A DNA stretch of 64,000 nucleotides from Pseudomonadota bacterium. Its GTDB lineage: Bacteria > Pseudomonadota > Alphaproteobacteria > Rhodospirillales > Casp-alpha2. The notes under the pieces were generated by a model. That model was given only the letters and a program-made list of their open reading frames with translations. It was not told the DNA's origin and did no database searches. Location of the stretch: the NCBI GenBank assembly GCA_022564115.1, contig JADFMB010000001.1, positions 2,195 through 66,194 of the forward strand, read 5' to 3'. The translations under genes and the position numbers were made by a program. Below, piece after piece: positions 9,446-61,034 of the stretch (the first letter of the stretch is position 1; the number at the start of each line of letters is the position of its first letter).

Positions 9446-9480
9446 ACGAGGCTAGCATCTATCTCAAATTTTGGGCCACG

Positions 9481-9555
9481 ATGTCCGCTTTGGGTCAAAA
9501 GCAGACATAAATGCCAGTGCTTAAAAAGGTCCGCTTTCGGATGGAAAGCAGACAT
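9481..9555. repeat. Two tandem REP-like palindromes of the ATGTCCGCTTT...AAAGCAGACAT family
   Basis: ATGTCCGCTTTGGGTCAAAAGCAGACAT at 9481-9508 and GTCCGCTTTCGGATGGAAAGCAGACAT at 9529-9555, between convergent genes. Confidence 0.8.
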
Positions 9556-9571
9556 TCAACAAACTGAACCA

Positions 9572-16113: not shown

Positions 16114-16129
16114 TGGCATCCTTCTTGCT
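16114..16129 (+). promoter_or_regulatory. Sigma-54 (-24/-12) type promoter upstream of the hook-like gene
   Basis: TGGCATCCTTCTTGCT has GG and GC elements exactly 12 nt apart, as in the TGGCAC-N5-TTGC consensus. It ends 62 nt upstream of ATG 16191. Confidence 0.6.
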
Positions 16130-17998: not shown

Positions 17999-18014
17999 TG
18001 GCACGGAATTCGCA
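17999..18014 (+). promoter_or_regulatory. Sigma-54 type promoter upstream of flgI
   Basis: TGGCACGGAATTCGCA has correct GG/GC spacing and lies about 64 nt upstream of ATG 18078. Confidence 0.55.
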
Positions 18015-22262: not shown

Positions 22263-24851
22263 ATGACCCGGATTTCAAGTCTTGCCGCCAATACGTCGCT
22301 GGTTAACCAGATATTGAGAACGCAAAGCCGCCTGTTCAACACCGAAATCCAGATCGCCAGCGGCAAGATTTCCCAGAATTACGAAGGTATCGCCATCGAT
22401 TCCCGGCGCCTGATCAACCTGGAAAACACCCGCGATTCCCTGCGGCAGTTCATCAAAAACAACGATCGGATAGACATCCGTCTCAACATCGCCAACATCG
22501 CCATCGACGGCATCCAGGAGTTGATCAGAAATTTCAGCCACAACCTCAACAATTTCGCGATCGGCGGAACCAAGGACAAGATCAAGGTTCAGACCATTCA
22601 GGAAGACGCCTTCCGGACGTTGAAATCCATCGAGGACCTGCTGAACACGAAAATCGACGGCCGCTTTATCTTCGCCGGCGGCCGGGTCGACACCGAGCCG
22701 GCCAATTTCGGCCTGACGACCCTGGCCAATTTCCAGGCCATCTTCGACGGCGCCCAGATCAAAATCTCGCAGACCCGGGACGCCAACCTCGCCGACTTCA
22801 CCATCAATCAGTCCAATAGCTTCAGCACCAAGACCTTCAAATCCGGCACGCTCTCAATGACCTTCGACGCCACCGCCGACACCATCACCGCCGCCGCCGG
22901 CACCTTCCGCTATCCCGATGGCACCAACCTGGCGGCGGGCGCCGAGATCGTCATTACCGGCACCACGGCCGGGACCAACGACGGCACCTACACCATTTCG
23001 TCCGTTTCCGCCGACGGTTCGACGGCGACGGTGAAGACGGCCAACACCGGCGCCCTGTCGATGACCTTCAACAACGCCGCCGACACGGTCACCGCCGCCG
23101 CCGGCACCTTCCGCAATACGGACGGCAGTGCTTTGTTGCCGGGCCAAAAGATCACCTTCTCGGGCGCCGTCAACGGCGCCAACAACGCCACCTTCACCAT
23201 CGCCTCGGTCTCCGCCGACGGCTCCGTGGTGACTCTTTCCGGCGCCCCGGTGCTCGTCGATGAAGTCGCACCCGCGGCCACGGCGATCACAGGCATCCAG
23301 GCGAATCAGACGTCCAACGCGGCGGCGGCGGCGGGAACCCCCTTGACCTTCGCCGACAACAACCCGGCCGCCGACACCATCACCGGGCCCGCGGGCTTCT
23401 TCAAGGACACCGCCGGAAACCTGCTCGGCGTCGGCTCGAAAATCACCATCACCAACACCGTGTCGAACAACGGCGTCTTCACCATCGCCTCGGTCTCCGC
23501 CGACGGCTCGACGGCGACGCTGGTCGCCGCCGACACCTTGACCAACGAGACCGACGCCAACGCCACGGCGAGCATCCCGGTGGCGACCAATCATCTTACC
23601 TTCCAGCGGGACAACGGCGCCACGCCGCCCCAGAGCATCATCACCGGCCAGGGCACGCCCTTCGCCAACACCAAGGCCGGGACCTTTATCACGATCACCG
23701 GCACCAGCAACAACAACGGCACCTATGAGGTGCTCTCCGTTCCCAACCCCGGCCAGATCATCGTGCGCACGAAGTTGTTCACCAACCAGACGGTCACCGC
23801 CAGCACCACCCCATCGATGATCACCGCCGTCGACGGCACCCAGGTGGCGACAGTGGACACGGGCGACCTGACGTTCGTCCGCGACAACGGCGCGACACCC
23901 CCGCAGAGCCGGGTGACGGCCGCGGTCGTGGGTTCGCTGGCGACCCTCAAGGTCGGCCAGAAGATCACCATCGCCGGCACCACCACCAACGACGGAATCT
24001 TCACGGTGGCCGCCAACGACGGCACCAACCTCGTCATCGTCACCCAGATGCTCACCGACGAGGGAACGGCGGCGACGCCGCAACTCAGCTTCACCAGCGC
24101 CGGCGCCGAGGTCACCTTTACCGACAACGCCCCCAACAAGGACACCATCGTCGCCGCGGCGGGACGGTTCAGCAACCTCGTTGCCGGGATGAAGGTAACC
24201 ATCAGCGGCGCCACCGACGCCGGCAACAACGCCACCTTCACGGTGTCCTCGATTTCGACCGACGGGTCGACCATTACCGTTGACGAAAACATCACCGCCC
24301 GCGCCGGTGACGCCAACACGGTCACGTTCCTGACCCAGGAGGCCAAGGGCACCATCGCCGCGACGTCCTATTACAAAGGTGACGCGACAAAACAGACCCA
24401 CCGGCTCGATAAAGACCGCAGCTTCGAATTCGATATCAACGCCATCGATCCAGCCTTCGAAAAGGCGATCCGGGGCATGCGCTTGATCATGCAAGGGATT
24501 TTCCAGACCGAAGGCGGCCTGGACCAGAACGCCGATCGCATCGGCCAGGCGAAGTTCCTTATCGGAAGCTCCCTCAAACAGGCTGTTTCCGGCACCCCGC
24601 CCTTCGGCACCGAAAAGGGCAACAACATCGAACAGATACAGATCGATTTGTCATTCGATCTGATCCTGATCAATCGCACCAATGACCTGCACTTCGATTT
24701 CATCGGCTTCTTGGAAACCAGCATCGCCAATGTTGAAAACGCCGATCCCCTGGAGACGATCACCAAGCTGCTGGCCGATCAGCGGGCGCTGGAGGCTTCG
24801 TTCCAGACGCTGGCGAAAATTCGGCAATTGAGTCTGGTTAACTTCTTATAA
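22263..24851 (+). CDS. flgL: Flagellar hook-associated protein 3, FlgL, with a greatly expanded repeat-containing central region
   Basis: The termini are flagellin/FlgL-type: N-terminus MTRISSLAANTSLVNQILRTQSRL, C-terminus LLADQRALEASFQTLAKIRQLSLVNFL. The gene follows flgK. At 862 aa it is far longer than usual for FlgL. Confidence 0.85.
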   Translation: MTRISSLAANTSLVNQILRTQSRLFNTEIQIASGKISQNYEGIAIDSRRLINLENTRDSLRQFIKNNDRIDIRLNIANIAIDGIQELIRNFSHNLNNFAIGGTKDKIKVQTIQEDAFRTLKSIEDLLNTKIDGRFIFAGGRVDTEPANFGLTTLANFQAIFDGAQIKISQTRDANLADFTINQSNSFSTKTFKSGTLSMTFDATADTITAAAGTFRYPDGTNLAAGAEIVITGTTAGTNDGTYTISSVSADGSTATVKTANTGALSMTFNNAADTVTAAAGTFRNTDGSALLPGQKITFSGAVNGANNATFTIASVSADGSVVTLSGAPVLVDEVAPAATAITGIQANQTSNAAAAAGTPLTFADNNPAADTITGPAGFFKDTAGNLLGVGSKITITNTVSNNGVFTIASVSADGSTATLVAADTLTNETDANATASIPVATNHLTFQRDNGATPPQSIITGQGTPFANTKAGTFITITGTSNNNGTYEVLSVPNPGQIIVRTKLFTNQTVTASTTPSMITAVDGTQVATVDTGDLTFVRDNGATPPQSRVTAAVVGSLATLKVGQKITIAGTTTNDGIFTVAANDGTNLVIVTQMLTDEGTAATPQLSFTSAGAEVTFTDNAPNKDTIVAAAGRFSNLVAGMKVTISGATDAGNNATFTVSSISTDGSTITVDENITARAGDANTVTFLTQEAKGTIAATSYYKGDATKQTHRLDKDRSFEFDINAIDPAFEKAIRGMRLIMQGIFQTEGGLDQNADRIGQAKFLIGSSLKQAVSGTPPFGTEKGNNIEQIQIDLSFDLILINRTNDLHFDFIGFLETSIANVENADPLETITKLLADQRALEASFQTLAKIRQLSLVNFL
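22845..24296 (+). repeat. Six tandem ~70-aa coding repeats inside flgL
   Basis: The repeated module is ...TF...A.DT[IV]TAAAGTF.....G..L..G.KITI.GT...NNG.FTIASVSADGST.T. An exact 32-nt DNA repeat, TTCACCATCGCCTCGGTCTCCGCCGACGGCTC, occurs at 23193-23224 and 23478-23509. Confidence 0.85.
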
Positions 24852-28883: not shown

Positions 28884-31118
28884 ATGTTACGGGTGCCTTC
28901 ACCCGGAAAACCGAAATTTCAATGGGTTTACCGTCAAATGCAGAACGCCTTAAAAGCGAAAAAAGCCAAATCCGCCAATAGACCTTCCGCCACCACCAAA
29001 AAAACGCCCCCCGGGAAGAAGCCGAAAAAGAGGAAATCCGTTAAAACGGCCAAAACCGGCAAGCCGAAAAAAACCAAGCCGAAAAAAAAGCTCGACCTTT
29101 CGAACCCCAAGGTCCGCGCCAAGCTGAAAAAGAAAAACCTGGCGCGCTTTAAAATCAAGGCCCCTGAGCTTTACCGGTTGGTCGAAAACTATGAGCCTTT
29201 AACGAAATTGGTTTTTGGCGATGACGGGCGGCCCGACGTCATTTTCGAGGGTGAATACTTCTACAACCAACGCTATGACGAATACGTTTCCCGGCAGCTC
29301 AAGGGTTTCTGGCGGGACCCGAAACGCCTGCGTATCGCCCCGATGCAGCCCGAGACCTTCGATGGAACCGCAGGCCTCTTTATCCACAAGATTCTAGAGC
29401 GCGGCACCAACAAGGGAATCGATTTCCATGTCGGTCACACTTCGGAAGAAAGCTATTTCCTATACATTTTTGGGCTCGGATTCGGCGAACATATCGATGA
29501 GCTCGTCAAAAAGACCAATTGCCGGGCCTTGGCGATCGCCGATCCCAATCCGGAATTCCTTTTTCATTCCCTGGAACTCTATGACTGGGGGAATCTTTTC
29601 GACACCATGGACAAAAGGGAAGCCGTCGTTCACGTTATTATCGAAAGCGATCCCGTTGTCCTTAGCTATAAAATCCGCACCTGGCTTCGCGGCAGCAACC
29701 CCATGGCCGTCGACGGGGCGACCCATTACATCCATTACAACAACCCGATTTTCGCCGCCGCCATCCAGCGGCTGGACGAAGACAAGGAACTGATTCTTTC
29801 GGGCCTCGGGTTTTTCTACGACGAAACCCTGATGATCAAGAACACCCACCACAATCTCTATCCCGGTACCGAGAGGGTTTACATGCGCCCCGAGGATCCG
29901 AGAATCGATGCCCCGGTGTTTGTCATCGGAAACGGCCCGTCGCTGGACAATGATCTCGATTTCCTGCGCGAAAACCAGGACAAGGCCATTATCGTCTCCA
30001 GCGGTTCGGCGCTGCGGCCCCTGATCCTCAGCGGCGTGGTCCCCGATTTCCAAATAGAAACGGAAAACATCGATGTTTTTCCCCTGATCGATCAGGTAGC
30101 AAAAGATCATGATATTTCAAAGGTTTGCCTGGTAACATCGACAACGGTCGATATTGAGGTGCCGCCTCTTTTCGATGACCTGCTCTATTACTTCCGGGGG
30201 TCCCTGAGCCCTTATCCCCTGTTCTGCAACTCCGACAAGCGGTGCCTGGGCAACCCCAACCCCACCGTCGTCAATGCCAGCCTTTCCTTTGCCCAGGAAC
30301 TGGGATTCAGGACTTTTTATTTTTTCGGTACCGACCTGGGAACCACCATGGGGGCCGAAAAACACCATTCCAAGCACGCCTACCAATATACCAAGGGGGC
30401 CATCGTCAGGCCGCAAACCTACAACATCCCCGTTCAAGCCAATTTCGGCGGCATCTGCATGGCCTCTGACGGCATGTTTTGGACCCGCGACGCCATCGAA
30501 AAGGCGATCCGCGAAATAGAATCGGGCCGAATGTATTTCAACTGCAGCGACGGCGCCCTGATCGAGGGCACGGTTTCCATGCCGTCGAATTTGGTTGAAT
30601 TGGACGATCTTTCCGAAGGCAAACGGCCGATCATCGATAAAATCAAGGAAGCCTTTCCTGTTTACGACCGCAAGGAATTCGATGACCACTGGGAAGACGA
30701 CAAGCTGCAAGAATACTTCAACGAATGGCTTGATGAATTCATTGCCCTGTCCATGGATGTGCCCAACTACGATGACCGGACCTACCTGACAAGGATCATG
30801 GCCCATTTTCATCCGGTGAGGCGGTTGCATCCGGGATCGTGGGGGCCGGCCCTGTTGTTCCGGGGGACGCTTTTCCAGATCATGATGAGCTTTGAATTCT
30901 ACCTCCGGCGGGTCGTCAAAAAGGACGTTCGCAAATTCGAAAAGATCGTCCGGAAAGAAATAATCCACGCCGTCGATTACCTTCGCGAAACAGCGGAAAA
31001 GGAATTCGGAACCCTGTCCAAGGACGCGGCGAAACGGGTCAAGAAGGCTATTTCCAAAAAGAAGAAGGCCTCCTCTAAAACTAAAAAAACCGCTAAAAAG
31101 AAATCCTCTAAAAAATAG
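28884..31118 (+). CDS. Motility accessory factor (Maf, DUF115/MptE-like) family protein 1, with Lys-rich N- and C-terminal tails
   Basis: The Maf core reads PVFVIGNGPSLDNDLDFLRENQDKAIIVSSGSALRPL...PDFQIETEN. It aligns along its length with the two other Maf paralogs in the window. ATG 28938 is the more likely start. Confidence 0.75.
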   Translation: MLRVPSPGKPKFQWVYRQMQNALKAKKAKSANRPSATTKKTPPGKKPKKRKSVKTAKTGKPKKTKPKKKLDLSNPKVRAKLKKKNLARFKIKAPELYRLVENYEPLTKLVFGDDGRPDVIFEGEYFYNQRYDEYVSRQLKGFWRDPKRLRIAPMQPETFDGTAGLFIHKILERGTNKGIDFHVGHTSEESYFLYIFGLGFGEHIDELVKKTNCRALAIADPNPEFLFHSLELYDWGNLFDTMDKREAVVHVIIESDPVVLSYKIRTWLRGSNPMAVDGATHYIHYNNPIFAAAIQRLDEDKELILSGLGFFYDETLMIKNTHHNLYPGTERVYMRPEDPRIDAPVFVIGNGPSLDNDLDFLRENQDKAIIVSSGSALRPLILSGVVPDFQIETENIDVFPLIDQVAKDHDISKVCLVTSTTVDIEVPPLFDDLLYYFRGSLSPYPLFCNSDKRCLGNPNPTVVNASLSFAQELGFRTFYFFGTDLGTTMGAEKHHSKHAYQYTKGAIVRPQTYNIPVQANFGGICMASDGMFWTRDAIEKAIREIESGRMYFNCSDGALIEGTVSMPSNLVELDDLSEGKRPIIDKIKEAFPVYDRKEFDDHWEDDKLQEYFNEWLDEFIALSMDVPNYDDRTYLTRIMAHFHPVRRLHPGSWGPALLFRGTLFQIMMSFEFYLRRVVKKDVRKFEKIVRKEIIHAVDYLRETAEKEFGTLSKDAAKRVKKAISKKKKASSKTKKTAKKKSSKK

Positions 31119-48025: not shown

Positions 48026-49302
48026 GCGAACTGGCGCTGCTCGGCGGCCAACCGGTGATATCCGGTCCGCTGCCGCCCTACCGGTCCCTGGGCGAGGCCG
48101 AGGAGGAAGCGGTCCGCGACGTGGTGCGGTCGGGCTGCCTGTCGGGTTTCTTCGGCAGCCCGGGGCCGGAGTTCCTGGGCGGGCCGAAAGTCCAGGAATT
48201 CGAGGCCGCGTGGGCCAAGCGTTACGGCGTCAAACACGCCGTCAGCGTCAATTCCGCCACCTCGGGCCTGATCGCCGCCATGGGCGCCATCGGCCTCGGC
48301 CCCGGGGACGAGGTCATCCTGCCGCCGTGGACGATGTCGGCGACGGCCATGGCGCCCCTGATCTATGGCGGCATTCCGGTGTTCGCCGACATCGAGGACG
48401 AAACCTTCTGCATCGACCCCGGCGCCGTCGCCGCCGCCATCGGCCCCAAGACCAAAGCCATTCTGGCGGTCAACCTGTTCGGGCATCCGGCGCCGCTGGC
48501 CAAACTGCGGGCGATCGCCGACGACAAGGGACTGGCCCTGGTCGAAGACAGCGCCCAGGCGCCGCTGGCCAACGAGGACGGACGCCTGGCCGGCACCGTC
48601 GGCGACATCGGCGTCTACAGCCTCAATTTCCACAAGCACATCCACGCCGGCGAGGGCGGCGTCTGCGTCACCGACGACGACGGCCTGGCGACACGCCTGC
48701 GGATGATTCGCAACCACGGCGAAAACGTCACCGAAGAGTTGGCCGGCGGCGACATCGCCAACATGGTCGGATTCAACTTCCGGATGACCGAATTGAGCGC
48801 CGCCATCGCCCTGGTCCAGCTTGCCGATATCGAAAACCACGTCGGTCGCCGCGAAGCCGTGGCCCGGGCCCTGAGCGACGGCACCCGGGATCTGGAGGGA
48901 TGGACCGCGCCAACTGAGCGCGACGGCTGCCGCCATAACTATTACGAATGGGTGGCGCGCTTCGACGCCCAGGCCGTGGGCGTCAGCCGCGAGCTTTTCT
49001 CGAAGGCGCTGACGGCCGAGGGCTTCCCCCATTTTACCGGCTACGTGGCGCCGCTGTATCAACTGCCCCTTTTCCGGCAACGAAAAGCCATCGGCAAGGA
49101 CGGCTATCCGTTTACCCTCACCGAGCGCCAATACGAGCCCGGAATGTGCCCGGTGACCGAGCGGCTGCACGAAAACGAAGCGGTCCTGTTCGAGCCCTGC
49201 GCCTTCGCCGTCGACGACGCCCTGGCCCAAAAATTGGTCGAAGCCGTGCGCAAGGTCCATGACAACCGGGACCTTTTGAACGCCGCCGGCGGAAAGGATT
49301 AA
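48022..49302 (+). CDS. DegT/DnrJ/EryC1/StrS family PLP-dependent sugar aminotransferase (copy 2)
   Basis: EFEAAWAKRYGVKHAVSVNSATSGL ... SLNFHKHIHAGEGG. The start ATG 48022 overlaps the previous stop. Confidence 0.85.
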   Translation: MSELALLGGQPVISGPLPPYRSLGEAEEEAVRDVVRSGCLSGFFGSPGPEFLGGPKVQEFEAAWAKRYGVKHAVSVNSATSGLIAAMGAIGLGPGDEVILPPWTMSATAMAPLIYGGIPVFADIEDETFCIDPGAVAAAIGPKTKAILAVNLFGHPAPLAKLRAIADDKGLALVEDSAQAPLANEDGRLAGTVGDIGVYSLNFHKHIHAGEGGVCVTDDDGLATRLRMIRNHGENVTEELAGGDIANMVGFNFRMTELSAAIALVQLADIENHVGRREAVARALSDGTRDLEGWTAPTERDGCRHNYYEWVARFDAQAVGVSRELFSKALTAEGFPHFTGYVAPLYQLPLFRQRKAIGKDGYPFTLTERQYEPGMCPVTERLHENEAVLFEPCAFAVDDALAQKLVEAVRKVHDNRDLLNAAGGKD

Positions 49303-49306
49303 GCCG

Positions 49307-50047
49307 GTGCCGAAATTCATCGCCAGCATCGAGGCCCGGATGGGATCGACCCGCCTGCCGGGCAAGATCCTGGAAGACGTCGGCGGGGTGCCAGTGTTGA
49401 CGCGGCTGTTGCGCCGCCTGCGGCGGGCCAAGCGGCTTGACGGCATCGTGTTGGCCACCACCGTCAATCCGGCCGACGACGCCATCGAGGAATGGGCCGA
49501 GGGCGAGGGCCTGGACTGGTTCCGCGGCAGCGAGGACGACGTGCTGGCCCGGGTCGTCGATGCCCAGCAAATGATGCGTTCGGACATCGTCGTCGAGGTT
49601 TGCGGCGATACGCCGCTGCTCGACCCGGAGGTCATCGACATGGCCATCGAGGCCTTCGCCGCCAACACCTGCCACGTGGTCACGACGACGCGCAAGAAGT
49701 CGTTCCCCGACGGCATCGACGCCGAGGTGTTCCGGCTTTCCGATCTCGAACGCGTCGCCGCCACCGTCACCGACCGGGCGGTGCGCGAACACGTGTCGCT
49801 GTATTTCTACCAACACCCGGAACGCTACCGCATCCATCATCTGCCGGCGCCCCCCGCATGGCGCCGCCCCGACCTGCGGCTGGTCCTCGACGAAGCCGAT
49901 GATCTGGCGCTTATCCGCGAAATCTACACCCGGCTGGAGCCCGAACACGGGGACGAATTCGGCACGGTCGAGATCATCCGGCTCTTCGACAGCGAGCCGG
50001 AACTGATGAACATCAACCGGCCGGCAAGCGAAAAGGTGGCGCCATGA
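49307..50047 (+). CDS. SpsF-like cytidylyltransferase family protein (copy 3 of 3)
   Basis: ASIEARMGSTRLPGKILEDVGGVPVL, with a GTG start. Confidence 0.7.
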   Translation: MPKFIASIEARMGSTRLPGKILEDVGGVPVLTRLLRRLRRAKRLDGIVLATTVNPADDAIEEWAEGEGLDWFRGSEDDVLARVVDAQQMMRSDIVVEVCGDTPLLDPEVIDMAIEAFAANTCHVVTTTRKKSFPDGIDAEVFRLSDLERVAATVTDRAVREHVSLYFYQHPERYRIHHLPAPPAWRRPDLRLVLDEADDLALIREIYTRLEPEHGDEFGTVEIIRLFDSEPELMNINRPASEKVAP

Positions 50048-51066
50048 CCGGCAACGGCCTGCGCACCATCGTCATCGGCTTCGGCCAGATCGCCCAGGGT
50101 TTGGGCGAGGACGGCCGGATGGCGAAATTTTTCACCTACGCCACCCATGCCCAGGTGTTGAGGGATCATCCGGGGTTTCAATGGCTGGGCGTCGTCGACC
50201 CTTCGAAGGAAGCGCAAAAGGCGGCCCGGGACGTTTGGAACGTCGCCCACGTTTCGGAGGACCTTTCGAAGGTCGCCCGCGAGGTCGAACCGGAAGTGGC
50301 CATTATCGCCGCGCCCCCCGGCGCCCGGGCCGAGATCGTGCAGCAACTCCCCAGCCTCAAGGCGGTGCTGGTGGAAAAGCCGCTGGGCTACGGCGGCGAG
50401 GAAGGCCGGGCGTTCGTCGATTTCTGCCGGCAAAAGAACGTCCATGTGCAGGTGAATTACTGGCGCCGCGGCGACGAGCTCTACCAACAGCTTGCCCAGG
50501 GTGGCCTCGCCGAGCGGATCGGCCGCCCGCAGGCGGTGTTCGCCACCTACGGCAACGGGCTGTTCAACAACGGTGGTCATCTGGTGGATTTCATCCGCAT
50601 GCTTTTGGGCGAGGTCGACACGGTGCAGGCCCTGGACCATCCCCGCCCGGCTGAGGACGCGCCGCTGGAAGGCGATGTCCAGGCGGCCTTTGCCCTGACC
50701 CTTGCCGGCGGCGCCATCGTCACCGTGCTGCCGCTGGACTTCGGCCACTACCGCGAGGTCGGCCTCGACATCTGGGGCGAGGAAGGACGGTTGGCGCTCT
50801 ATCAGGAAAGCCTCGGCGTCTTCCACTATCCCCTCGCCGGCAACCGGGGCCTGGTAAACGAAATGGAGATCAGCTCCGACAAGCCCCAGGTCCTGGAACC
50901 GACGGTGGGAGGCGCGCTCTATCGGCTTTACGACAACCTGGCCGAAACCGTTGACGGCACCGCCGAGCCCTGGAGCCCCGGCGATCAAGCCGTGCATACG
51001 GAGTTGATTTTGGAATCGGTGCTGAATTCGGCGGAGAGCGGGTGCGAACGGCTGCATTTCCAATGA
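50044..51066 (+). CDS. Gfo/Idh/MocA family oxidoreductase (copy 2)
   Basis: Rossmann-like N-terminus (RTIVIGFGQIAQG) and VLVEKPLG motif. Confidence 0.7.
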   Translation: MTGNGLRTIVIGFGQIAQGLGEDGRMAKFFTYATHAQVLRDHPGFQWLGVVDPSKEAQKAARDVWNVAHVSEDLSKVAREVEPEVAIIAAPPGARAEIVQQLPSLKAVLVEKPLGYGGEEGRAFVDFCRQKNVHVQVNYWRRGDELYQQLAQGGLAERIGRPQAVFATYGNGLFNNGGHLVDFIRMLLGEVDTVQALDHPRPAEDAPLEGDVQAAFALTLAGGAIVTVLPLDFGHYREVGLDIWGEEGRLALYQESLGVFHYPLAGNRGLVNEMEISSDKPQVLEPTVGGALYRLYDNLAETVDGTAEPWSPGDQAVHTELILESVLNSAESGCERLHFQ

Positions 51067-51070
51067 TGGG

Positions 51071-52234
51071 ATGGGCGCCATGAGCGGCGGCGGAAAGGAC
51101 CGGGCGGACGTGTTGATCTTCGTCGAGGATCCGGGTGCCGTGAACGCCGTCGTCGACCTGCCGCAAGCCCTGGCCGCCACGGGACTGAAGACCCGGACGT
51201 TGGCCACCGGGCACGCGGTGGAATACCTGGCCTCGTTCGGCGCCGATTTCACCGAACCTGACGCGGCCGCCGACGCCGCCGCTCTGATCGACGCCCTCAA
51301 CCCGCGAATGGTCGTCTCCGGCACTTCTGAAAACCCGGATACGCTCGGCCTCAAGTTGATCGCCGAAGCCCGGAAACGGGGGCTTGCCAATGTCGGCTTC
51401 CTGGACGGCCCGGCGAGCGCCGACCACCGGTTCCGGGGCTCCGGCGACGTCCCTCTGGCCTTCGCCCCGGAATGGATCCTGGTCCCCGACGCCATGACCC
51501 GAAAGCGTTACCAGGCCCTGGGGCATCCGGTTGAACGCATCGTCGATTGCGGGCATCCCTATTTCGACCGGGTGCGGGTGACCGCCGCCGAACTGGCGAA
51601 ACGGGGCAAGGCGGCGGTCCTGGCCGAGGTTTTGCCCGACGCGCCGCCGGACCGGCCGGTGGTCGTGTTCCTGGCCGAGATTTCGACCAGCCTGGCCCCG
51701 GAAAAGCTTCGCCGGAGCCCCGAATACACCCTCCACGGGCGCGGCGGCAGCGACCTGCGCACCCAAATCGTGCTTGAGGAGGTTCTGGACGCGGTGACGC
51801 TGATCGAGCCCCGGCCTTATTTCGTGCTGCGGCTGCATCCTAAGAATTCGGCCGATGAATTCGACGCCTACGGCCCCGAAATCGACTCCCTCAGCCAATC
51901 CGGGCTGGCCGCCGATCTTGTTTACGCCGCCGACCTGGTGATCGGGATGACGACCATCCTGCTGTTCGAGGCCGCCCTGATGGACTGCCCGACCCTCAGC
52001 GTCACCCCCAAGCCGTCTGAAACCGAGTGGCTGACCAGCATCGGCCTCGGCATCACCCCTTCGGTGCACACGCGGGAAGATCTCAGGGAAATCCTGCCCG
52101 CGGCGCTCGCCGATCCGGGCCGGGTGATGGGCACGCCGCCGGGGGAGGTTTTAAACTTCGGCGCCCTGGAACGGATGGCGGATTTTATTTCCGGTCTGCT
52201 GGCGGATGACACAAGCGCCCGGGAAACGAACTGA
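51071..52234 (+). CDS. Hypothetical protein, possibly two-Rossmann (GT-B-like) fold; candidate for the missing hydrolase/epimerase or transferase step
   Basis: This is a clean 387-aa ORF in the operon with alternating beta-alpha-like segments (VLIFVEDPG..., VVVFLAEIS..., LVIGMTTILLFEAALMDCPTL). No diagnostic motif recognised. Confidence 0.5.
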   Translation: MGAMSGGGKDRADVLIFVEDPGAVNAVVDLPQALAATGLKTRTLATGHAVEYLASFGADFTEPDAAADAAALIDALNPRMVVSGTSENPDTLGLKLIAEARKRGLANVGFLDGPASADHRFRGSGDVPLAFAPEWILVPDAMTRKRYQALGHPVERIVDCGHPYFDRVRVTAAELAKRGKAAVLAEVLPDAPPDRPVVVFLAEISTSLAPEKLRRSPEYTLHGRGGSDLRTQIVLEEVLDAVTLIEPRPYFVLRLHPKNSADEFDAYGPEIDSLSQSGLAADLVYAADLVIGMTTILLFEAALMDCPTLSVTPKPSETEWLTSIGLGITPSVHTREDLREILPAALADPGRVMGTPPGEVLNFGALERMADFISGLLADDTSARETN

Positions 52235-52250
52235 TCGAGGGAACCCGACG

Positions 52251-52784
52251 ATGGCCGAAGCCCCGACATTGGAAACCCCGCGCCTGACGCTGGCGCCGTT
52301 TTCGGACGAACACCTGACGGAGCGCTACGTCGGCTGGCTCCAGGACCCGGACGTGGTCCGTTATTCCGAACAGCGCCACCGCACGCATACCCTGGAGAGT
52401 TGCCGCCAATTCGCCGCCTCGTTCGCCGACGGGCCCAGCCACCTGTGGGCGATCATCGAGAATAAACAAGGCCTCGGCCATATCGGCAACATCAACTCCG
52501 ACGTCGACGCCGCCAACCGGACCGCCGACGTCGCCGTCATGATCGGCGAGAAACAGGCCTGGGGACAGGGATTGGGCTTTGAGGCCTGGAACGCCGTTCT
52601 CGATTATCTTCTCGGCCCCGGCGCCATGCGCAAGGTGACCGCCGGCACCATGGCCGAAAACAAGGGCATGCTGGCGATTTTCGAGAAATCCGGGATGACC
52701 GAGGAAGGGCGCAGGAAAAAGCAGTTCCAGTTGCTGGACCGCGAAGTGGACGCCATCCTGGTCGCCCGTTTCGCCGAAACCTAG
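52251..52784 (+). CDS. GNAT family N-acetyltransferase (RimJ/RimL-like)
   Basis: RLTLAPFSDEHLTERYVGWLQDPDV ... WGQGLGFEA. The start is placed at ATG 52251. Confidence 0.8.
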   Translation: MAEAPTLETPRLTLAPFSDEHLTERYVGWLQDPDVVRYSEQRHRTHTLESCRQFAASFADGPSHLWAIIENKQGLGHIGNINSDVDAANRTADVAVMIGEKQAWGQGLGFEAWNAVLDYLLGPGAMRKVTAGTMAENKGMLAIFEKSGMTEEGRRKKQFQLLDREVDAILVARFAET

Positions 52785-52808
52785 AGCTTTTCAGGCGCCA
52801 CTTGGGCT

Positions 52809-54722
52809 CTAAGTCTTTGGTATAAGCCCCCCGAGGTCGTTTTCGCACTTCCGGTTTAGGCGTTCCATGGCCTCGGCGAAGGTTTCCCGGACCGCATCCC
52901 GGTAAAGGGTTGCCTGGCCGCGGTCGGCCAGGCGGTTGGAAAAATACCGGATGGCGATCAGCATATTGAAGATCGTTCCCCGGATGACCATCCGCGCCGG
53001 GGCGCGCTTGGGGTCTTCCTCGTTGGCGTACAGGCCATAGAGGCGCTTCAGGTAGCCGTTGCCGGCAAAATCCGTGGTTTCGGCGATGAGGTTGGCGGTT
53101 TGGCCGGTCAATTTCCCGATTTGGGAGACGAGGTCGCTTTCGGCCAGCCTTTCCTCGAACCGGCGGCGGTCGTAGGGTTCGGCGTCGGCGATCAGTTGCC
53201 GGACGACTTCGGATTTATCCGCCGCCGGGGGATCGAGGGTCAATTCCCCCGGCCGCACGGGCTCGACGCCCTCGATCAGGCAGCCGTCGGAACAATTGAA
53301 AAACCGCCGCCCCTGGGCGAATGCCTGGACCGCTTCGCGGACCGCCACCAGGGTCTTGAAGAAGATCGTCGTCGTATAGGCGACGCCGCCGAAATTGGCC
53401 GGCATCTCGATATCGAATTCCTCGTAGACGATCCCATAGGAACCGTCCGCGTGGTGACGTTCGGGATTGCGGGCGCCCAGGTCCATCCCGAAAAGATAGA
53501 AAGCGCGGAACCCGGACCACAGCGCGAAGCTCATGCCGGCGTTGCCCACCGAAGGCGAGCCGCCGACCAGGATCGCGCTTTCAGGCGGCCGGAACAGGTG
53601 GTTGGGCGTCTGTCCGGCGCGGAAATAAAGCGTCGATGACCCGTAGCTGTTGACGAATTCCCCGGGGCAGGTGACGGCGGCGATCAGGTGGATGTCATCG
53701 GTTTCCGGCCTCGATTTCAGGAAATCCCGAATGGCGTTGAAATCGGGGTAGTAATTCTCGCTTTCGACCTGGAAATCGGGGGTGATTCCGTTGTTCAACA
53801 GCGGCTGCAGGGCGGTGCCGACGGAAACGATGACGGCGTTGTCTTGGTTTTCCTTGATCACCTCGATGGCGTCGTCCAGGGACGGGCCGCTGCCGACCAG
53901 AAACACCGGAAGCGGCAGTTCACGCTCCCCCGGCGTCTTGTAAATGCGGGCCTCGGCCGAGCCCAAATTGGCGTGGGAATTCAGGACCATCAGCCGTTCA
54001 TCGACATAACAGCCCAGGTCGTCGGAAACCCCCATCAACTCGTTGCCCATGCGCGAAAGGATTTCGTTGATCGCCGGCATGTCGCCGAACTTGAAGTAAT
54101 AGGCGCCGTCGAGCGCGCACACGTTGGATTCCCGAAGCGACCACTTGATGCCCATGCAGGCCTTGGTGACGTCGGAATCGAAGACCATCTGGAGTGTGCG
54201 GCTATTGGCGTCGAAGGAGCGGAACAGGGCGTCCCATTCGTAGGTGGACATCGAATGGTAGACGTATTCAAACGAAGGCTCGACCAGCACCAGGGTCTGG
54301 CAGCCGCTCCGTTCGACCAGGGGGTCGATGTGGGCCCCCAGGCCGACGCCGAAAATCAACAGGAAATAGCCGCCGGCCGGGGTCAGGCTGTCGCCGAGGG
54401 CGATGTTCCCCTGTTCGCAGCGCCGGAGCAGATCGCCGACGAATTGGCCGGCGTCCCCGTCTCCCTGCTCGGGGTTGGGCGGGGTCAGGGCGATGCGCGA
54501 GGGTTGGCGCCAGTAATTTTCCAGCATTTCGCCGACAAGGGCGTCATAACGGCCACCGAAAACCAGGCTTTCGCCCACCGACAGGTCGACACAGCCCTCC
54601 TCCGTGGTGATGAGGGCGGCTTCGGGTTGGTAGGATTTCGCCAGATCGTAGAGGGTCGGCGCCCGTTGGCGGAACAGCTCCAGGTTCTGCTCGAACAATT
54701 CCTTCGACTGTTGCGTTGCCAT
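52809..54722 (-). CDS. Motility accessory factor (Maf, DUF115) family protein 2
   Basis: PVFLVGSGPSLDDAIEVIKENQDNAVIVSVGTALQPLLNNGITPDFQVESEN. Collinear with Maf 1 and Maf 3. Confidence 0.75.
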   Translation of the reverse strand: MATQQSKELFEQNLELFRQRAPTLYDLAKSYQPEAALITTEEGCVDLSVGESLVFGGRYDALVGEMLENYWRQPSRIALTPPNPEQGDGDAGQFVGDLLRRCEQGNIALGDSLTPAGGYFLLIFGVGLGAHIDPLVERSGCQTLVLVEPSFEYVYHSMSTYEWDALFRSFDANSRTLQMVFDSDVTKACMGIKWSLRESNVCALDGAYYFKFGDMPAINEILSRMGNELMGVSDDLGCYVDERLMVLNSHANLGSAEARIYKTPGERELPLPVFLVGSGPSLDDAIEVIKENQDNAVIVSVGTALQPLLNNGITPDFQVESENYYPDFNAIRDFLKSRPETDDIHLIAAVTCPGEFVNSYGSSTLYFRAGQTPNHLFRPPESAILVGGSPSVGNAGMSFALWSGFRAFYLFGMDLGARNPERHHADGSYGIVYEEFDIEMPANFGGVAYTTTIFFKTLVAVREAVQAFAQGRRFFNCSDGCLIEGVEPVRPGELTLDPPAADKSEVVRQLIADAEPYDRRRFEERLAESDLVSQIGKLTGQTANLIAETTDFAGNGYLKRLYGLYANEEDPKRAPARMVIRGTIFNMLIAIRYFSNRLADRGQATLYRDAVRETFAEAMERLNRKCENDLGGLIPKT

Positions 54723-55017
54723 CCTTGGGCGTTTCCCGCGTTCCGGTCTTGCCGCCCTTCCCTTGTACGTCCGAAGTCTCGGGTCTTACAACGGCTTTTC
54801 ACCGCCACTGCCGGGGGGGCGCAACCGGAAAGGACACCGTGGCCCCCCTGGGAGGGTGGGGGGGCGCGGCGGGGGGGCGCGGCGGGGGGCCCCATCGGTC
54901 GATCTGGTTCCATACCATCCAACCTCTCCCGACGACCTTTAACCGGACTCAAAAAAAATTTGAAATTTTAAAGGACCGCTCTCATTCCATTACCGGACAT
55001 CAAAGGTGCTGAGACGA

Positions 55018-55197
55018 ATGTCTGCTTTCAGGGGGATTCTGTTGCAAAACTATTTAGCGGGCGTCGAAACGTAATTATCGAATCGAAATCACGGAGGAAA
55101 CGACTCATTCTTACCGAGAAGGGTGCGGCGACGAATCAATATTGCGTCGTTTTTCCGTAAACAGAGTTTTGCAACAGAATAAGGGGTAAAGCAGACG
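55018..55197. mobile_element. MITE-like element copy 1 (~180 bp, long terminal inverted repeats)
   Basis: Left end AATGTCTGCTTTCAGGGGGATTCTGTTGCAAAACTATTT; right end GTTTTGCAACAGAATAAGGGGTAAAGCAGACGT, its reverse complement. No ORF inside. Confidence 0.7.
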
Positions 55198-55215
55198 TAA
55201 TTCAGGGTGTGGCTG

Positions 55216-55395
55216 AATGTCCGCTACTAGCTGAGGCTGTTGAAGAACTATTTTCGGGGGTCCTTAGCGCAACGATGATTCAAGGAATGCCCGTTTTCCG
55301 TAATGAAGCTTGGTGTTTTCGCGCTTGTTGATTCTTTTATTTCGCCATCGATGCTCTCAACAGAGTTGTTCAACACCCTCAGCCAGAAGCGGAAG
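55216..55395. mobile_element. MITE-like element copy 2 (more degenerate right end)
   Basis: Left end AATGTCCGCTACTAGCTGAGGCTGTTGAAGAACTATTTTCGG; right end AGTTGTTCAACACCCTCAGCCAGAAGCGGAAG. Confidence 0.6.
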
Positions 55396-55535
55396 AAATA
55401 AAGCATTGGAAAACTGGAAAGAAAAATGGCTCCTCCGAAGGTAAAGTTTAGATATCATATTCACGAGTTGGGGTTATCTGGAGAATCAATGCTGAATAGC
55501 CTTGATAACGCTGCCTACAATGGGTTCTGTTCCTA

Positions 55536-56504
55536 ATGGCGAATATGCTGCGGACATTGGTCGAGGCAATGGGCCTAGAAGGAGCCGAGATATGTCTTCA
55601 CGGCGATCCAAACGTTAATCCGAACGAAAACCCGCTTTTCTTCTATCACGTGCACAAAACGGGCGGCATTTCCGTAATTAGTTGTCTGCTCATGGGATTT
55701 TGGGCAAACGAGGCGTTACGAAATCCCGACCGCACAATTGATGAATTGTATCGGGATGCGACGAGCCATATCGGCCGTTGGGATACCCGCAGCGTGAACG
55801 ATGCGCCCCATCCACCCGATGACAGGCCCGATGGTTATTCTTTTGTTTCGTCGCACCATAAATTTGGCCACCACGAGTTGTTTAAACAGAATTTCCGCTT
55901 GTTCACGATGCTCCGCGATCCGGTGGAGCGGGTGATTTCAGATTACCATTACCGGGTCTGGCGAAAACACGAAGGATATGAATCCCTTAGCGAGGAAGGG
56001 TTCGTCTCATACATTCGCGATCCGGACAACGTCTGCATGCATAGTCAACATCTGTCACGATTGAACCTTCGGAAGGACGGGATCGAAAGGATGGGTGAGG
56101 ATGCCATGAGCAATCTTCAGGCGCTGGACGGCTACGGCACTACCGATCAATGGGAAGATTTCGTTCAAAGTGTTTGGAACAACTGGGACTTTCCAAATTA
56201 CATAGGTTCGAGATGGTTGAAGACGCCCCGTCGGGAATGTCTAAACACGGATCCATTCACCGAGGAGTTGATTGAACTCAACAAATATGACATCGCGTTG
56301 TACGAATATGCCAAACAAAACCCTAGGCCGCTAGCAGCCGTTTCCAATGGAACCAATTTCCGTCACCACTCGATTATCGTCTACGATAAGGATGAAGATG
56401 CAGGGACCTTCGACGACGCTCAGATCATCAAGACGACGGATTTTCTGAACAGGGTCAAGCAGGGCGAGAAAAAGCTCTCGGACTTCGCGGCTCCGGCAGC
56501 ATAG
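55536..56504 (+). CDS. Sulfotransferase family protein (PAPS-dependent, Sulfotransfer_2-like motifs)
   Basis: 5'-PSB-like motif FFYHVHKTGGIS and 3'-PB-like motif TMLRDPVERVISDY. The gene is AT-richer than its neighbours: three 60-nt lines I counted gave 40-52 percent G+C, versus 58-75 percent in two lines from neighbouring genes. Confidence 0.7.
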   Translation: MANMLRTLVEAMGLEGAEICLHGDPNVNPNENPLFFYHVHKTGGISVISCLLMGFWANEALRNPDRTIDELYRDATSHIGRWDTRSVNDAPHPPDDRPDGYSFVSSHHKFGHHELFKQNFRLFTMLRDPVERVISDYHYRVWRKHEGYESLSEEGFVSYIRDPDNVCMHSQHLSRLNLRKDGIERMGEDAMSNLQALDGYGTTDQWEDFVQSVWNNWDFPNYIGSRWLKTPRRECLNTDPFTEELIELNKYDIALYEYAKQNPRPLAAVSNGTNFRHHSIIVYDKDEDAGTFDDAQIIKTTDFLNRVKQGEKKLSDFAAPAA

Positions 56505-56588
56505 TCTGGTATTACCTTTTCCTGTAGGTGTGCGGTTGCGTCAAACGCTGGTTTTTTTAAACCCGCTGTCGAATTCCAATATTCGCCG

Positions 56589-56770
56589 AATGTCCGCTTT
56601 GGGTCGAGGCTGTTGAAAAACTATTTTCGGGCCATTTGCACGCAAGATCGAAACAAGATCGGACGGTTTTAAGCAAGAATGAGTCATAAAGGCCGCACCC
56701 ACGATTCTTTTGTTGCGCCAAGCCGATCACCAGCGGAGTTTTTCAACAGCCTCAGCCATAAGCGGACATT
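56589..56770. mobile_element. MITE-like element copy 3
   Basis: Left end AATGTCCGCTTTGGGTCGAGGCTGTTGAAAAACTATTTTCGG; right end AGTTTTTCAACAGCCTCAGCCATAAGCGGACATT, a near-perfect inverted repeat. Confidence 0.75.
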
Positions 56771-57042
56771 GAAGCAAGGGTTAGAAATCCGAAATTATCT
56801 AAAAAACCGGGCGAGGGAAGTTCTTTTCCGTACCCCCGCTAATCCCCCCGTCCCAATCAGATTAATAAATAAGCTCGCCCTCCTCATCGCCGCTGGAGAT
56901 GACGATCTCGCCGGCGGCGGCCAGGTCCTTGGCGGTGGTGACGACGCCGGGAGAGGCGCAACGGAATGTTCGGAACTCCCCCTTTGACCCAACATGGTAT
57001 CCTGACGGACCGGCGAAGCCCGGGTTCGGGAAAGACAGGACC

Positions 57043-59142
57043 ATGGACGCGAAGAAAAGACAAAAGCTGCGGACGCGGAACCTACAGGCGATCGGCAATA
57101 TCCTGCCGCCCCTGGCCGACGCCCTGAAACGCCACAACCCCTTATCGAAGCTGGTTTTCGACGATGATGCCGAGGACGGCGGGGGCGACGTGACCGTCAA
57201 CGGCGTCCCGGTCTATGGCGGCCGGGCGCGGGATTTCGCCGCCGAAAAAGTGGAAAAGTTCCACCGCGGGGGGCTCCGAATCGTGATGCCGAAGCCGGAG
57301 CCGGGCATGTTCGACGAGCACACCAACGGCTTCCTGCAGGCCCTTGACCAGCGCACGGCCGAGGAAGGAATCCGGTTCAGGGACACCCCCGAAGGCCCGG
57401 ACGCCTATTACCTGATCGTGTTTGGTATCGGCTTGGGTTACCACCTGGAGGCGCTGGCCCGGGAAGGCGCCCCCGAATTCATCGTCCTGGTTGACCAGAG
57501 CCTGGATTTCCTGTGCCATTCCCTCGAAGTCTTTGACTGGGGGCAATTCATCGATTCCATGCTTTCGCGAAACCGCCGGATCGCCTTCGCCATCGACCCC
57601 AATCCACAGACGCTTTCGATAATGATCGCCAACATCGTCGAAAACTGGAACCCGCCATCGGTGGACGGAACCCGGGTATTCATGCTCGATGACTGGCCGG
57701 TTGAATCCCAGGTAATGCAGGCGCTGGACGTTGAAATGGGCAAGGTGCTGTCGTTCATGGGCTTTTTCAACGACGAAATCATCATGCTTCGCAATACCTA
57801 TAACGCGCTCGGTTCGGGCCAGGCGAAGGTCTATCGGCGGCCCAACAACCCAAAGGTCGACGTGCCGGTGTTCCTGGTCGCCTCGGGCCCGTCGCTCGAC
57901 GAAAACATCCCCTTTATCCGGGAAAACCAGGACAAGGCGGTGATTATCTCCAACGGGACGGCGTTGCGGTCCTTGTTGATCAACGGCATCACGCCCGATA
58001 TCCAGATCGAGACCGAAAACGTCCTCGTCTATCCCCTGGTCGCCCTGGTCGGGGAAAAGTTCGACTTGTCGTCCATCTGCCTGATCGCCTCGACGACGGT
58101 GGATTCTCATATCCTGGACTTCTTCGGCGACGTCATTTTCTTCTTCCGCTCGGCGCTCAGCCCCTATCCGCTGTTCTGCGAATCGGAAAGGAACTGCCTT
58201 CTCAACCCCGACCCGACGGTGGTCAACGCCGGGTTGTCGTTCGCCCAGGAAACGGGTTTCCAGGACATATATTTCTTCGGCGTCGACTTGGGGACCCGCG
58301 GCCAAGGCCGGCACCATTCCAAGGACAGCTACCATTACACCGAAAACCCCATCGTCGTGCCCGAGGACCTGATATTCAACATTCCGGTGCCGGGAAATTT
58401 CGGCGGCCCGTTCTTTTCGTCCATGGGCTTCGCCTTCACCCTGACCAATCTGGTCGCCGCCATCGGCGCCTCGGGCCCGGGGATCAGGCATTTCAATTGC
58501 TCGGACGGGGCGCTGATCGAGGGGGCGCAACCCGAAAAAGTCTCTTCGCTTTCGTTCGCCGACATCCCCGGCGGCAAGAAACAGGCCGTCGAGAAGATCA
58601 TCGGGGGGTTTCCGACATATCCGAAAGCGAGGTTCGAAAAGGCCTGGAACGAAGACAGGCTTTTCGCCGCCGTCAACGGGTTCGCCGACCGGCTGATCGG
58701 CGCCTTCGAAGGCCTGGAGTCCTTCGAGGACAAGTCGGCGCTGGTTCGCGCCACTGACTTCTTCAGGCCCCTGGTCGACAAAACGTCGCTTTTGCAAAAG
58801 CGTTTCGACCATACGGCCTTGCAAATTTTCCGCGGCACCTGTCTGTTGATGATGGGAACGGTGGAATATTTCGCCAACCGCCTGTCCGCTCCCGAACACC
58901 ACCGGGCTTTTGCCAAAATCGTCGGCGAGGAAATCATCGTTGTCGCCGAAAATCTGAGAAAAAAGGCGGTCGAGATTTTGAGCGACCCGACGGTGGTCCC
59001 GGCGATCACCAACGAAGGCGCCATCGAGCCCGAGGGCGTGATTCCCGAGGTTTCCGCCAGTTGGGGAAGCGTCCCGCGCAACGCCCCGTGTCCTTGCGGG
59101 TCGGGAAAAAGGTACAAGCAATGCCACGGAAGCATGACGTAA
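57043..59142 (+). CDS. Motility accessory factor (Maf, DUF115) family protein 3 with C-terminal SEC-C motif
   Basis: [52 protein letters not shown]. The C-terminus reads [15 protein letters not shown]. Start at ATG 57043 within a longer ORF-track frame. Confidence 0.75.
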
Positions 59143-61018: not shown

Positions 61019-61034
61019 TGGCCCGGCCCTTGCT
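61019..61034 (+). promoter_or_regulatory. Sigma-54 type promoter upstream of fliK-flgD-flgE
   Basis: TGGCCCGGCCCTTGCT has canonical GG/GC spacing and ends 60 nt upstream of ATG 61094. Confidence 0.5.

Follow-up and report, generated by a model that had tools for sequence, protein, structure and literature searches.

In a 64-kb stretch of the metagenome-assembled genome (MAG) of an alphaproteobacterium (contig JADFMB010000001.1, positions 2,195 to 66,194; hereafter the window), a segment of about 2.1 kb appears to have been inserted between two genes for Maf-type flagellin glycosyltransferases, maf1 and maf2. The segment carries a single sizeable gene, predicted to code for a sulfotransferase dependent on 3'-phosphoadenosine 5'-phosphosulfate (PAPS), and around this gene lie three hairpins of a repetitive extragenic palindromic (REP) family, each of them interrupted by a transposable element of the miniature inverted-repeat type (MITE). 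We propose that the segment was gained in the lineage of the window, that the repeats colonised it afterwards and that the enzyme may sulfate the glycan of flagellin. For this explanation as a whole, comprising the insertion, the enzyme, the nested repeats and the proposed acceptor, we estimate a probability of about 0.7. Positions are those of the window unless a locus is named, and the features are collected in Table 1.

A segment of foreign composition between maf1 and maf2

A sequence-only reading of this DNA had claimed that an AT-rich gene is inserted between the two maf genes, and both the composition and the insertion are borne out. In 300-nt windows, the G+C content of 54900-56850 is 44-52% versus 60-69% in both flanks, and the G+C content at third codon positions (GC3) of the sulfotransferase open reading frame (ORF) is 0.59 versus about 0.80 in each neighbouring gene. 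Within the segment, G+C amounts to 39-51% in the centre and 62-74% at the edges. The comparison with related genomes that the same reading had proposed gave a clear answer. A cluster of 89%-identical homologues was found for maf1, with orthologues on contigs L129, L139 and L140; in L139 and L140, the members of this cluster whose contigs reach far enough upstream of maf1, the segment is missing.

The DNA of these two relatives is about 91-92% identical to the window, with values from 90 to 93%. L139 is collinear with 48317-54823 (92.5% identity) and with 56942-58502 (90.4%), and the alignment of L140 runs up to 54830 and resumes at 56942. Since both alignments break here, the window contains about 2.1 kb extra (54831-56945). 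In both relatives, the maf2 orthologue is transcribed divergently from maf1, with start codons 208 (L139) and 184 bp (L140) apart; in L139, where it adjoins maf1, it is 88% identical over 486 aa. The maf1-maf2 intergenic regions of L139 and L140 contain no REP or MITE motif, and tblastn of the sulfotransferase on the relatives' contigs gave nothing significant (best E value 0.16 over 25 aa). A distant outgroup (L130-L132), whose Maf1 is 55% identical, also lacks the segment.

At the junctions, 19 nt of L139 and 25 nt of L140 are used twice in the alignments, and the left and right copies of this target in the window match in 19 of 22 columns. Both copies share GCGCAAC, while L139 and L140 both read GCGCGCAT; such agreement of the window's copies where both relatives differ fits a duplication made in the lineage of the window. 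Direct repeats of 21 nt on either side could also mediate a precise deletion, so that the segment might be ancestral and lost from the relatives. We consider this very improbable, given that two relatives and the distant outgroup are without the segment, that the composition of the ORF is foreign and that the shared GCGCAAC points to the window's own lineage.

Under the preferred explanation, the lineage of the window gained the segment in the roughly 200-bp divergent promoter region of maf1 and maf2, its arrival duplicating about 20 nt of target and bringing in one intact gene of foreign composition for a PAPS-type sulfotransferase with the heparan-sulfate 2-O/6-O fold. This step is placed first because two relatives have empty sites. 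Entry may have occurred by site-specific integration with a recombinase acting in trans or by illegitimate, slippage-type recombination at the G-rich target, and the short target duplication and the G-rich 13-mers described below seem to fit either route. As the sulfotransferase gene is the only sizeable ORF in the segment, the latter encodes no recombinase. Two results weigh against an insertion of this kind, namely that the 21-nt direct repeat taken alone is not significant versus shuffles (27 versus a maximum of 28), and that no terminal inverted repeat (TIR) was detected at the insertion edges (score 16 versus a shuffle mean of 15.8).

Further observations concern the edges of the segment and a third close relative. 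At the left junction, the tract 54810-54883 is rich in G and contains tandem 13-mers (GGGGGGGCGCGGC in two copies, together with related ones); it may have arisen by slippage or belong to the integration site. The G+C-rich right edge, 56862-56946, reads on the minus strand as a protein stretch of 27 letters, which may be what is left of the 3' end of a donor-locus gene. L129 diverges from the window at 54773, approximately 50 nt upstream of maf1, and shows two intact REP hairpins in its positions 1-184 before the contig ends inside an insertion. Because this insertion is different from that of the window, the maf1-maf2 spot is an insertion hot spot.

The inserted gene codes for a predicted sulfotransferase

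The PAPS-binding-like motifs previously noted in the 322-aa ORF, FFYHVHKTGGIS and MLRDPVERVISDY, are present, and the proposed identity was confirmed at the level of family, profile and fold: by every test run, the product is predicted to be a carbohydrate-type, PAPS-dependent sulfotransferase. The protein matches PF03567 (Sulfotransfer_2) with 30.3 bits versus a curated cut-off of 22, covering positions 9-252 of the 252 of the model; no NCBIfam model matches it. The profile of an alignment of 49 homologues retrieves heparan sulfate 6-O-sulfotransferase (5t03) with an E value of 9.7e-18 and 2-O-sulfotransferase with 9e-8 (4ndz) and about 1e-7 (3f5f). An AlphaFold (AF2) model is confident over the whole length (pLDDT 92.8, pTM 0.91). 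When it was compared by Foldseek, 5t03 and 4ndz were the best matches, with a probability of 1.0 and modest TM-scores of 0.41-0.50, and ranks 1-49 contained nothing but sulfotransferases and proteins closely related to them in fold.

Seven residues (H38, G44, G111, H113, R127, R132 and S135) are invariant in the 49-homologue alignment, and K41 and P129 are kept in at least 90% of the sequences. The 5'-phosphosulfate loop, H38-V-H-K41-T-G-G44-I-S, aligns with HIQKTGGT of the 6-O-sulfotransferase HS6ST, and the 3'-phosphate motif RDPxxRxxS, R127-D-P129-V-E-R132-V-I-S135, aligns with LRDPVSRYLS of the same enzyme. Judged from these alignments, the conserved positions correspond to the phosphosulfate loop, the 3'-phosphate motif and a histidine that is a candidate for catalysis. 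The enzyme would use PAPS via Lys41 of the HKTGG loop and Arg127/Ser135 of RDPxxRxxS, with His113 as base, in the O-sulfation of a sugar hydroxyl. Immediately upstream, an ORF of 15 codons (MLNSLDNAAYNGFCS; 55490..55537, plus strand) has a GGAGAA Shine-Dalgarno sequence 4 nt before the ATG, and its TAA overlaps the ATG of the sulfotransferase gene (TAATG), so that translational coupling of the two is possible.

When 1.84 billion cluster representatives were searched exhaustively, 691 relatives of the sulfotransferase emerged, the closest 39% identical and the next three 34-36%. The exact protein (NCBI MCH7935508.1) occurs in one organism only, a MAG recorded as Proteobacteria bacterium, and the two contigs that were compared, from different assemblies, are 100% identical to the window. 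The closest homologues (39-30% identity) have as neighbours RadC, major facilitator superfamily and purine genes, a CLC channel, a type VI secretion locus and an 898-aa protein that itself adjoins nap genes. A metagenome scan for further sulfotransferase loci gave two loci only, neither of them flagellar, and a plasmid search with the protein returned Priestia/Bacillus genes only, which are 24-26% identical.

Three of the four closest homologue genes are lower in G+C than their own loci (0.55 versus 0.60, 0.56 versus 0.61 and 0.46 versus 0.59; loci L124, L126 and L128), the fourth barely so (0.605 versus 0.62), which suggests that the subfamily is mobile or intrinsically AT-biased. In L126 (5305-8957), the 36%-identical homologue P0013 overlaps by 1 base the stop codon of the 898-aa protein, which has no Pfam match. 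This pairing is kept on two contigs and may represent an operon pointing to the native partner of the subfamily.

Host hairpins with MITEs in their loops

Three hairpin repeats of about 180 bp had been described around the gene; they were found at the positions of the REP hairpins in Table 1, with the shared termini AATGTCYGCT and CTGTTGMARAACTATTT. The 19-mer GGCTGTTGAAAAACTATTT (at most 3 mismatches) occurs 3 times in the window versus 0.02 expected, and elements 1-3 have folding z-scores of -5.8, -3.2 and -6.3 versus shuffles. Each unit of ~180 bp consists of two nested things, a short host REP hairpin (AATGTCCGCTT...AAGCGGACATT) and a MITE of 147-148 bp in its loop. When MITE-1 and one copy of its target-site duplication (TSD) are removed, AATGTCTGCTTTCAGGGGGTAAAGCAGACGT is obtained, a hairpin of -17.3 kcal/mol, and uninterrupted REPs of the same type 1 lie at 6958-6982 and at 8032-8056 of L135, a 22-kb piece of another scaffold from the same metagenome. 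The rebuilt REP3 site holds GTCCGCTTTGGGTCATAAGCGGAC, which is identical to an intact REP at 69-92 of L129, and folds at -18.5 kcal/mol. The stretch 55183-55231, in turn, matches 6969-7017 at 92% and L135 6245-6288 at 89%, and elements 1 and 2 are this recurring REP1-linker-REP2 pair with a MITE in each loop.

Standalone, the REP is a hairpin of 24-31 nt (6958-6982, 7002-7030, 9483-9506 and 9529-9553). It is also present five times on L135 and twice in L129, and strict matches number 3 in the window and 5 in L135 versus about 0.5 expected in the shuffled window. Being a short imperfect palindrome, intergenic, in many copies and in recurring pairs, the outer hairpin has the properties of REPs and of bacterial interspersed mosaic elements (BIMEs), and is by its sequence a REP family of this lineage. 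Intact REPs of at least three loop types, often paired with a conserved linker, were seen at 6955-7030 and 9480-9556 of the window and at 6226-6302, 7985-8056 and 13342-13412 of L135. On the Rhizobium gallicum plasmid pRgalR602a (L123, 2490-2540), a solo MITE right arm with the same REP-like flank (GGAGTTTTTCAACGGTATCTGCCATAAGCGGACGTT) lies right after a gene, and Rhizobiales thus also have REP and MITE in combination, or the two halves of it.

In the order of events that we favour, host REP hairpins would have appeared, after the insertion, in the non-coding flanks of the segment, REP1-linker-REP2 upstream and REP3 downstream of the gene, and each of the three has then taken a 147-148-bp IS1182-derived MITE into its loop, with duplication of 4 bp of target. 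Since the MITEs are nested in host REP loops, the repeats are secondary colonisers of permissive DNA and not the vehicle of the gene. The sequence-only reading had suggested the opposite, that the gene was mobilised as a composite unit, and this part has to be abandoned: the insertion edges lie beyond the outermost repeats, the left one about 185 bp before element 1 and the right one about 175 bp past element 3, and the composite-transposon idea therefore fails. MITE-2 and MITE-3 are, it is true, direct repeats flanking the ORF with nearly identical TIRs, and their outer 4-mers AGCT and AGCC match in 3 of 4 bases. However, the empty-site edges do not delimit one TSD-flanked unit, each MITE sits in a REP loop of its own, with the sites of MITE-1 and MITE-3 being rebuilt as complete hairpins, and the MITEs are only 61-68% identical to one another, so that we give next to no credence to a composite transposon made of MITE-2 and MITE-3 or of elements 1 and 3.

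Other identities were tried for the repeats and rejected. For a structured RNA, Rfam 15 gave nothing better than E 0.93 on this region of the window and nothing at gathering thresholds on 12 related loci. For an integron attC site, GTTGAAA/TTTCAAC are, by eye, in the wrong order and have the wrong bases compared with RYYYAAC...GTTRRRY, and there is no integrase. The rhizobial element RIME1 was considered for the ~180-bp elements on account of its length of 183 bp.

The MITEs belong to a family with IS1182-type ends

All three MITEs of the window have 17-nt TIRs and no transposase. Pairwise they are 61-68% identical, MITE-2 and MITE-3, which share their orientation, reaching 68%, and they arrived separately and not very recently, or else descend from different master copies. 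The family was searched with a pattern from the inner arms, CTGTTGNANAACT-N(100-130)-AGTTNTNCAACAG, which matches at least 120 loci in Acidobacteriota, Bacteroidota, Verrucomicrobiota, four classes of Proteobacteria and other phyla, with record titles naming at least 10 phylum-level taxa. Among the matches listed, nearly all of 124 have complementary bases in the two arms at the two variable positions of the core, and the 4-mers exactly 4 nt outside the core are perfect direct repeats of each other in 72 of 123 copies (96 of 123 with at most one mismatch). Shuffled left-right pairs gave 5 on average and 14 at most, and other offsets or repeat lengths 0-4. Owing to this fixed 4-bp duplication, the elements are products of transposition with a TIR of 17 nt, and the ends of the MITEs were set by the family-wide 4-bp TSD, at an offset of 4 from the CTGTTG core. 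The TSD that had been suggested as a check thus exists for the family, and the copies of the window have retained it imperfectly, with 3/4, 3/4 and 2/4 bases in agreement.

A complete insertion sequence (IS) at L014 2707-4250 has the TIR GTGGGTGTTGAAAAAGTC and a perfect 4-bp TSD, AGGC. Its transposase of 464 aa contains DUF772 and DDE_Tnp_1_6 and matches the NCBIfam model IS1182 with 395.6 bits versus a cut-off of 270. In Hymenobacter (L029) and Acidovorax (L108), IS1182-like transposase genes are bounded by the TIR variant of their own lineage. The ends of the MITE family are likewise of the IS1182 type (GAGGCTGTTG), and its members, small, non-coding and multicopy, combine TIRs and a family-wide TSD of fixed length with an autonomous IS with matching ends, as expected for MITEs. 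No IS1182 transposase was seen within the window, and a literature text search for the TIR core sequence found no description of the family.

Across the loci L003-L122, the elements measure 137-162 bp, and their ends consist of 4 variable nt followed by CTGTTGNANAACT, with the 4-bp TSD. An alphaproteobacterial subgroup keeps the exact length of 148 bp and an internal inverted repeat (GCGCAAnnATGATTC ... GATTCnnTnnTTGCGC) despite 63-73% identity. An internally deleted copy of about 630 bp (L108, 4564-5198) is intermediate between IS and MITE, and about 490-1007 of L029 is an example locus of the family in Hymenobacter.

The TIR core also resembles that of IS6/IS26, whose consensus is GGTTCTGTTGCAAA (PMC6807381, PMC10470526) and whose ends begin with GG and are accompanied by 8-bp duplications (PMC6807381, PMC7986276). 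In both, four variable bases precede CTGTTG(C/A)AAA, MITE-1 having GATTCTGTTGCAAA. Membership was rejected in view of the terminal tetranucleotides (GTGG, TATT, GATT, GAGG), the rarity of G at position 2 and the TSD of 4 bp, and the likeness is a resemblance only. A link to IS110 transposases was discarded as well; they are the commonest neighbour (7 of the 120 loci listed), but lie at irregular distances, and no element is split by one. MITE-3 was considered as a chimera of two copies, with flanks like REP3-left plus REP2-right, and this was dismissed since its rebuilt site is identical to the intact REP3 in L129.

The acceptor of the sulfotransferase

The gene is located centrally in the glycosylation island, 538 bp upstream of maf2 and pointing the same way, and this position makes sulfation of the flagellin glycan a plausible guess. 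Maf-type glycosylation is cytoplasmic, and PAPS is available there. As the single most likely acceptor we tentatively name the nonulosonic-acid glycan that the flanking Maf enzymes would attach to flagellin in the cytoplasm. That a horizontally acquired enzyme of the heparan-sulfate type O-sulfates the flagellin glycan, a nonulosonic acid of the pseudaminic/legionaminic type, or its CMP-sugar precursor is possible but rather doubtful.

Several results weigh against flagellin as the acceptor. Scans of the intergenic region revealed neither a sigma-54-like nor a sigma-70-like promoter for the gene, and no PAPS-synthesis gene turned up in a scan of roughly 40 of the window's larger ORFs. The searches gave neither an exact match nor a near-identical cluster for the enzyme outside this one organism; none of the five closest homologues examined has a flagellar context, and the insertion of L129, with its nearby breakpoint, differs from that of the window. 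In the literature searched, no report of a sulfated bacterial flagellin was found.

The enzyme could instead act on an acceptor unrelated to the flagellum, such as a sugar of lipopolysaccharide (LPS), capsule or exopolysaccharide, or a small molecule, at a REP-rich site that merely tolerates insertions. This is a serious candidate, to which we give somewhat less than even odds. It would agree with the non-flagellar contexts of all homologues examined, with the variability of the site in close relatives (two empty, one with a different insertion), with the wealth of REPs and MITEs in the segment and with the G+C of homologue genes below that of their own loci, as for a mobile accessory gene. 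It leaves aside, however, that the gene sits amid a large glycan-modification island, oriented like the maf2 operon at a short distance upstream, and that glycan islands typically gather glycan-tailoring genes.

It seems unlikely to us that the gene is a silent or decaying passenger, intact only through recent insertion and devoid of function in this host. Its composition has not been ameliorated, no promoter-like site was found for it and it is present in one organism only, all of which a passenger would explain. Against this, the frame is full length and keeps every residue that is invariant in the 49 homologues, the model is confident from end to end, the Shine-Dalgarno sequence of the upstream ORF and the TAATG overlap suggest working translation signals, and its sequence does not differ between the two contigs compared, which stem from different assemblies.

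Table 1. Positions of the inserted segment, its gene and repeats, and the flanking maf genes in the window.
Feature	Position	Strand	Basis or remark
Inserted segment, about 2.1 kb	54831..56945	.	Absent from relatives L139 and L140
Left copy of duplicated target, GCCGGGGGGGCGCAACCGGAA	54810..54830	.	Relatives' single-copy segment aligns to both junctions
Right copy of duplicated target, GCCGGGAGAGGCGCAACGGAA	56946..56966	.	Relatives' single-copy segment aligns to both junctions
Predicted sulfotransferase, family 2 (HS2ST/HS6ST-like), 322 aa, intact	55536..56504	+	Pfam, profile, model and fold matches
REP hairpin type 1, split by MITE-1	55017..55197	.	Halves 55017-55034 and 55182-55197; element 1 of the sequence-only reading
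MITE-1, 147 bp	55035..55181	.	TIR GATTCTGTTGCAAAACT / TATTCTGTTGCAAAACT; flanking 4-mers GGGG/AGGG
REP1-REP2 linker of recurring BIME-like pair, AATTCAGGGTGTGGCTGA	55198..55215	.	Sequence match to other pairs
REP hairpin type 2, split by MITE-2, right arm degenerate	55216..55395	.	Compared with 7002-7030 of the window and L135 6276-6299; element 2 of the sequence-only reading
MITE-2, 148 bp	55233..55380	+	TIR GAGGCTGTTGAAGAACT; flanking 4-mers AGCT/AGCC
REP hairpin type 3, split by MITE-3	56589..56770	.	Element 3 of the sequence-only reading
MITE-3, 148 bp	56606..56753	+	TIR GAGGCTGTTGAAAAACT; flanking 4-mers GGTC/AGCC, decayed TSD
maf1, Maf-type flagellin glycosyltransferase	52809..54722	-	Pfam Maf_flag10_N 2.1e-34, MptE-like 1.1e-29; left of insertion
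maf2, Maf glycosyltransferase with C-terminal SEC-C motif	57043..59142	+	Pfam, gene call in L001; right of insertion

Neighbouring genes in the window

The window as a whole is an alphaproteobacterial flagellar cluster with a nonulosonic-acid glycosylation island. The latter includes genes for NeuB, a PseA-like amidotransferase, HisH/HisF-like proteins, two CMP-transferases, aminotransferases and a GNAT protein, as well as three Maf proteins, a tetratricopeptide repeat (TPR)-GT41 protein, flagellin, FlaF and FlbT. Both maf1 and maf2 have the Maf domains (Maf_flag10_N plus MptE-like) and are transcribed divergently, maf2 being the first gene of a maf2-TPR-fliK-flgD-flgE run. A paralogue of the Maf-SEC-C type, 61% identical to maf2, was seen within a cobalamin biosynthesis cluster (L135 10001-12100, scaffold_316), an odd place for a homologue of a flagellin glycosyltransferase; this cluster carries the REP family of the window.

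Between 25677 and 32723, GC3 is 0.67-0.75 versus ~0.80 in the rest of the island. This stretch contains the TPR-GT41 gene, the third maf (28884-31118), a TPR gene and an ORF of 277 aa without Pfam match, and may be an older acquired block. An ORF of 862 aa (22263-24851), between flgK and flaF, has host-like codon bias and no Pfam match, and may code for a divergent hook-associated or filament-related protein. Sites resembling sigma-54 promoters (TGGCAC-N5-TTGC, 1-2 mismatches) lie at 16114-16129, 17999-18014 and 61019-61034, immediately upstream of an flgE-like gene, flgI and a fliK-like gene; their window-wide count is not above chance.

Significance and comparison with known systems

Known tailoring of bacterial flagellin comprises acetamidino, methyl, formyl and glyceroyl groups. 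If the flagellin glycan is indeed the acceptor, sulfate would join this chemistry, in what would be the first sulfated bacterial flagellin glycan, and the added negative charge could alter the filament surface, phage recognition and immune recognition. The source organism is an uncultured MAG. Whatever the function, its locus is a clean natural case of layered genome plasticity, with a foreign gene, then REPs and then MITEs in REP loops, and a MITE family with one TIR core and a 4-bp duplication in many phyla could help to annotate intergenic repeats.

REP and BIME elements are short, multicopy intergenic palindromes, often paired through a conserved linker, and the hairpin loop is where REP-targeting insertion sequences such as IS1397 and ISKpn1 insert. 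The palindromes, the linker pairs and the landing in the loop are alike in the window. However, its REP (ATGTCCGCTT...AAGCGGACAT) is specific to the lineage, and the invader is an IS1182-type MITE instead of an IS of the IS3 family. With IS1182-family elements, these MITEs share the TIR (4 variable nt, CTGTTG/GTGTTG and AAAAACT) and the 4-bp TSD of the full IS in L014, but the copies in the window have no transposase and only 147-148 bp.

The predicted enzyme has its fold and its PAPS-binding and catalytic motifs in common with the heparan sulfate 6-O- and 2-O-sulfotransferases (PF03567; 5t03, 4ndz, 3f5f), which are carbohydrate O-sulfotransferases; it is only 14-18% identical to them, with TM-scores as low as given above. 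These are animal enzymes that act in the Golgi on glycosaminoglycan chains, whereas the protein of the window would be a soluble, cytoplasmic one of a bacterium. Closer in taxonomy are the rhizobial NodH, LpsS and KpsS, alphaproteobacterial PAPS-dependent sulfotransferases that act on Nod factor, LPS or capsule. The likeness would lie in the alphaproteobacterial host, the use of PAPS and the sulfation of carbohydrates, which in the rhizobial case are secreted or on the surface, and to our knowledge no enzyme of these types comes from a flagellin glycosylation island.

In Halobacterium salinarum, VNG1056C and VNG1057C sulfate the N-glycan of archaellins and other glycoproteins, and in structure they match sulfatases best and not the fold of PAPS sulfotransferases (PMC11980604). 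Although this system is archaeal and concerns a lipid-linked N-glycan, and no homology to the ORF of the window is implied, it is the nearest analogue of what we propose, in that a glycan on the subunits of a motility filament is sulfated.

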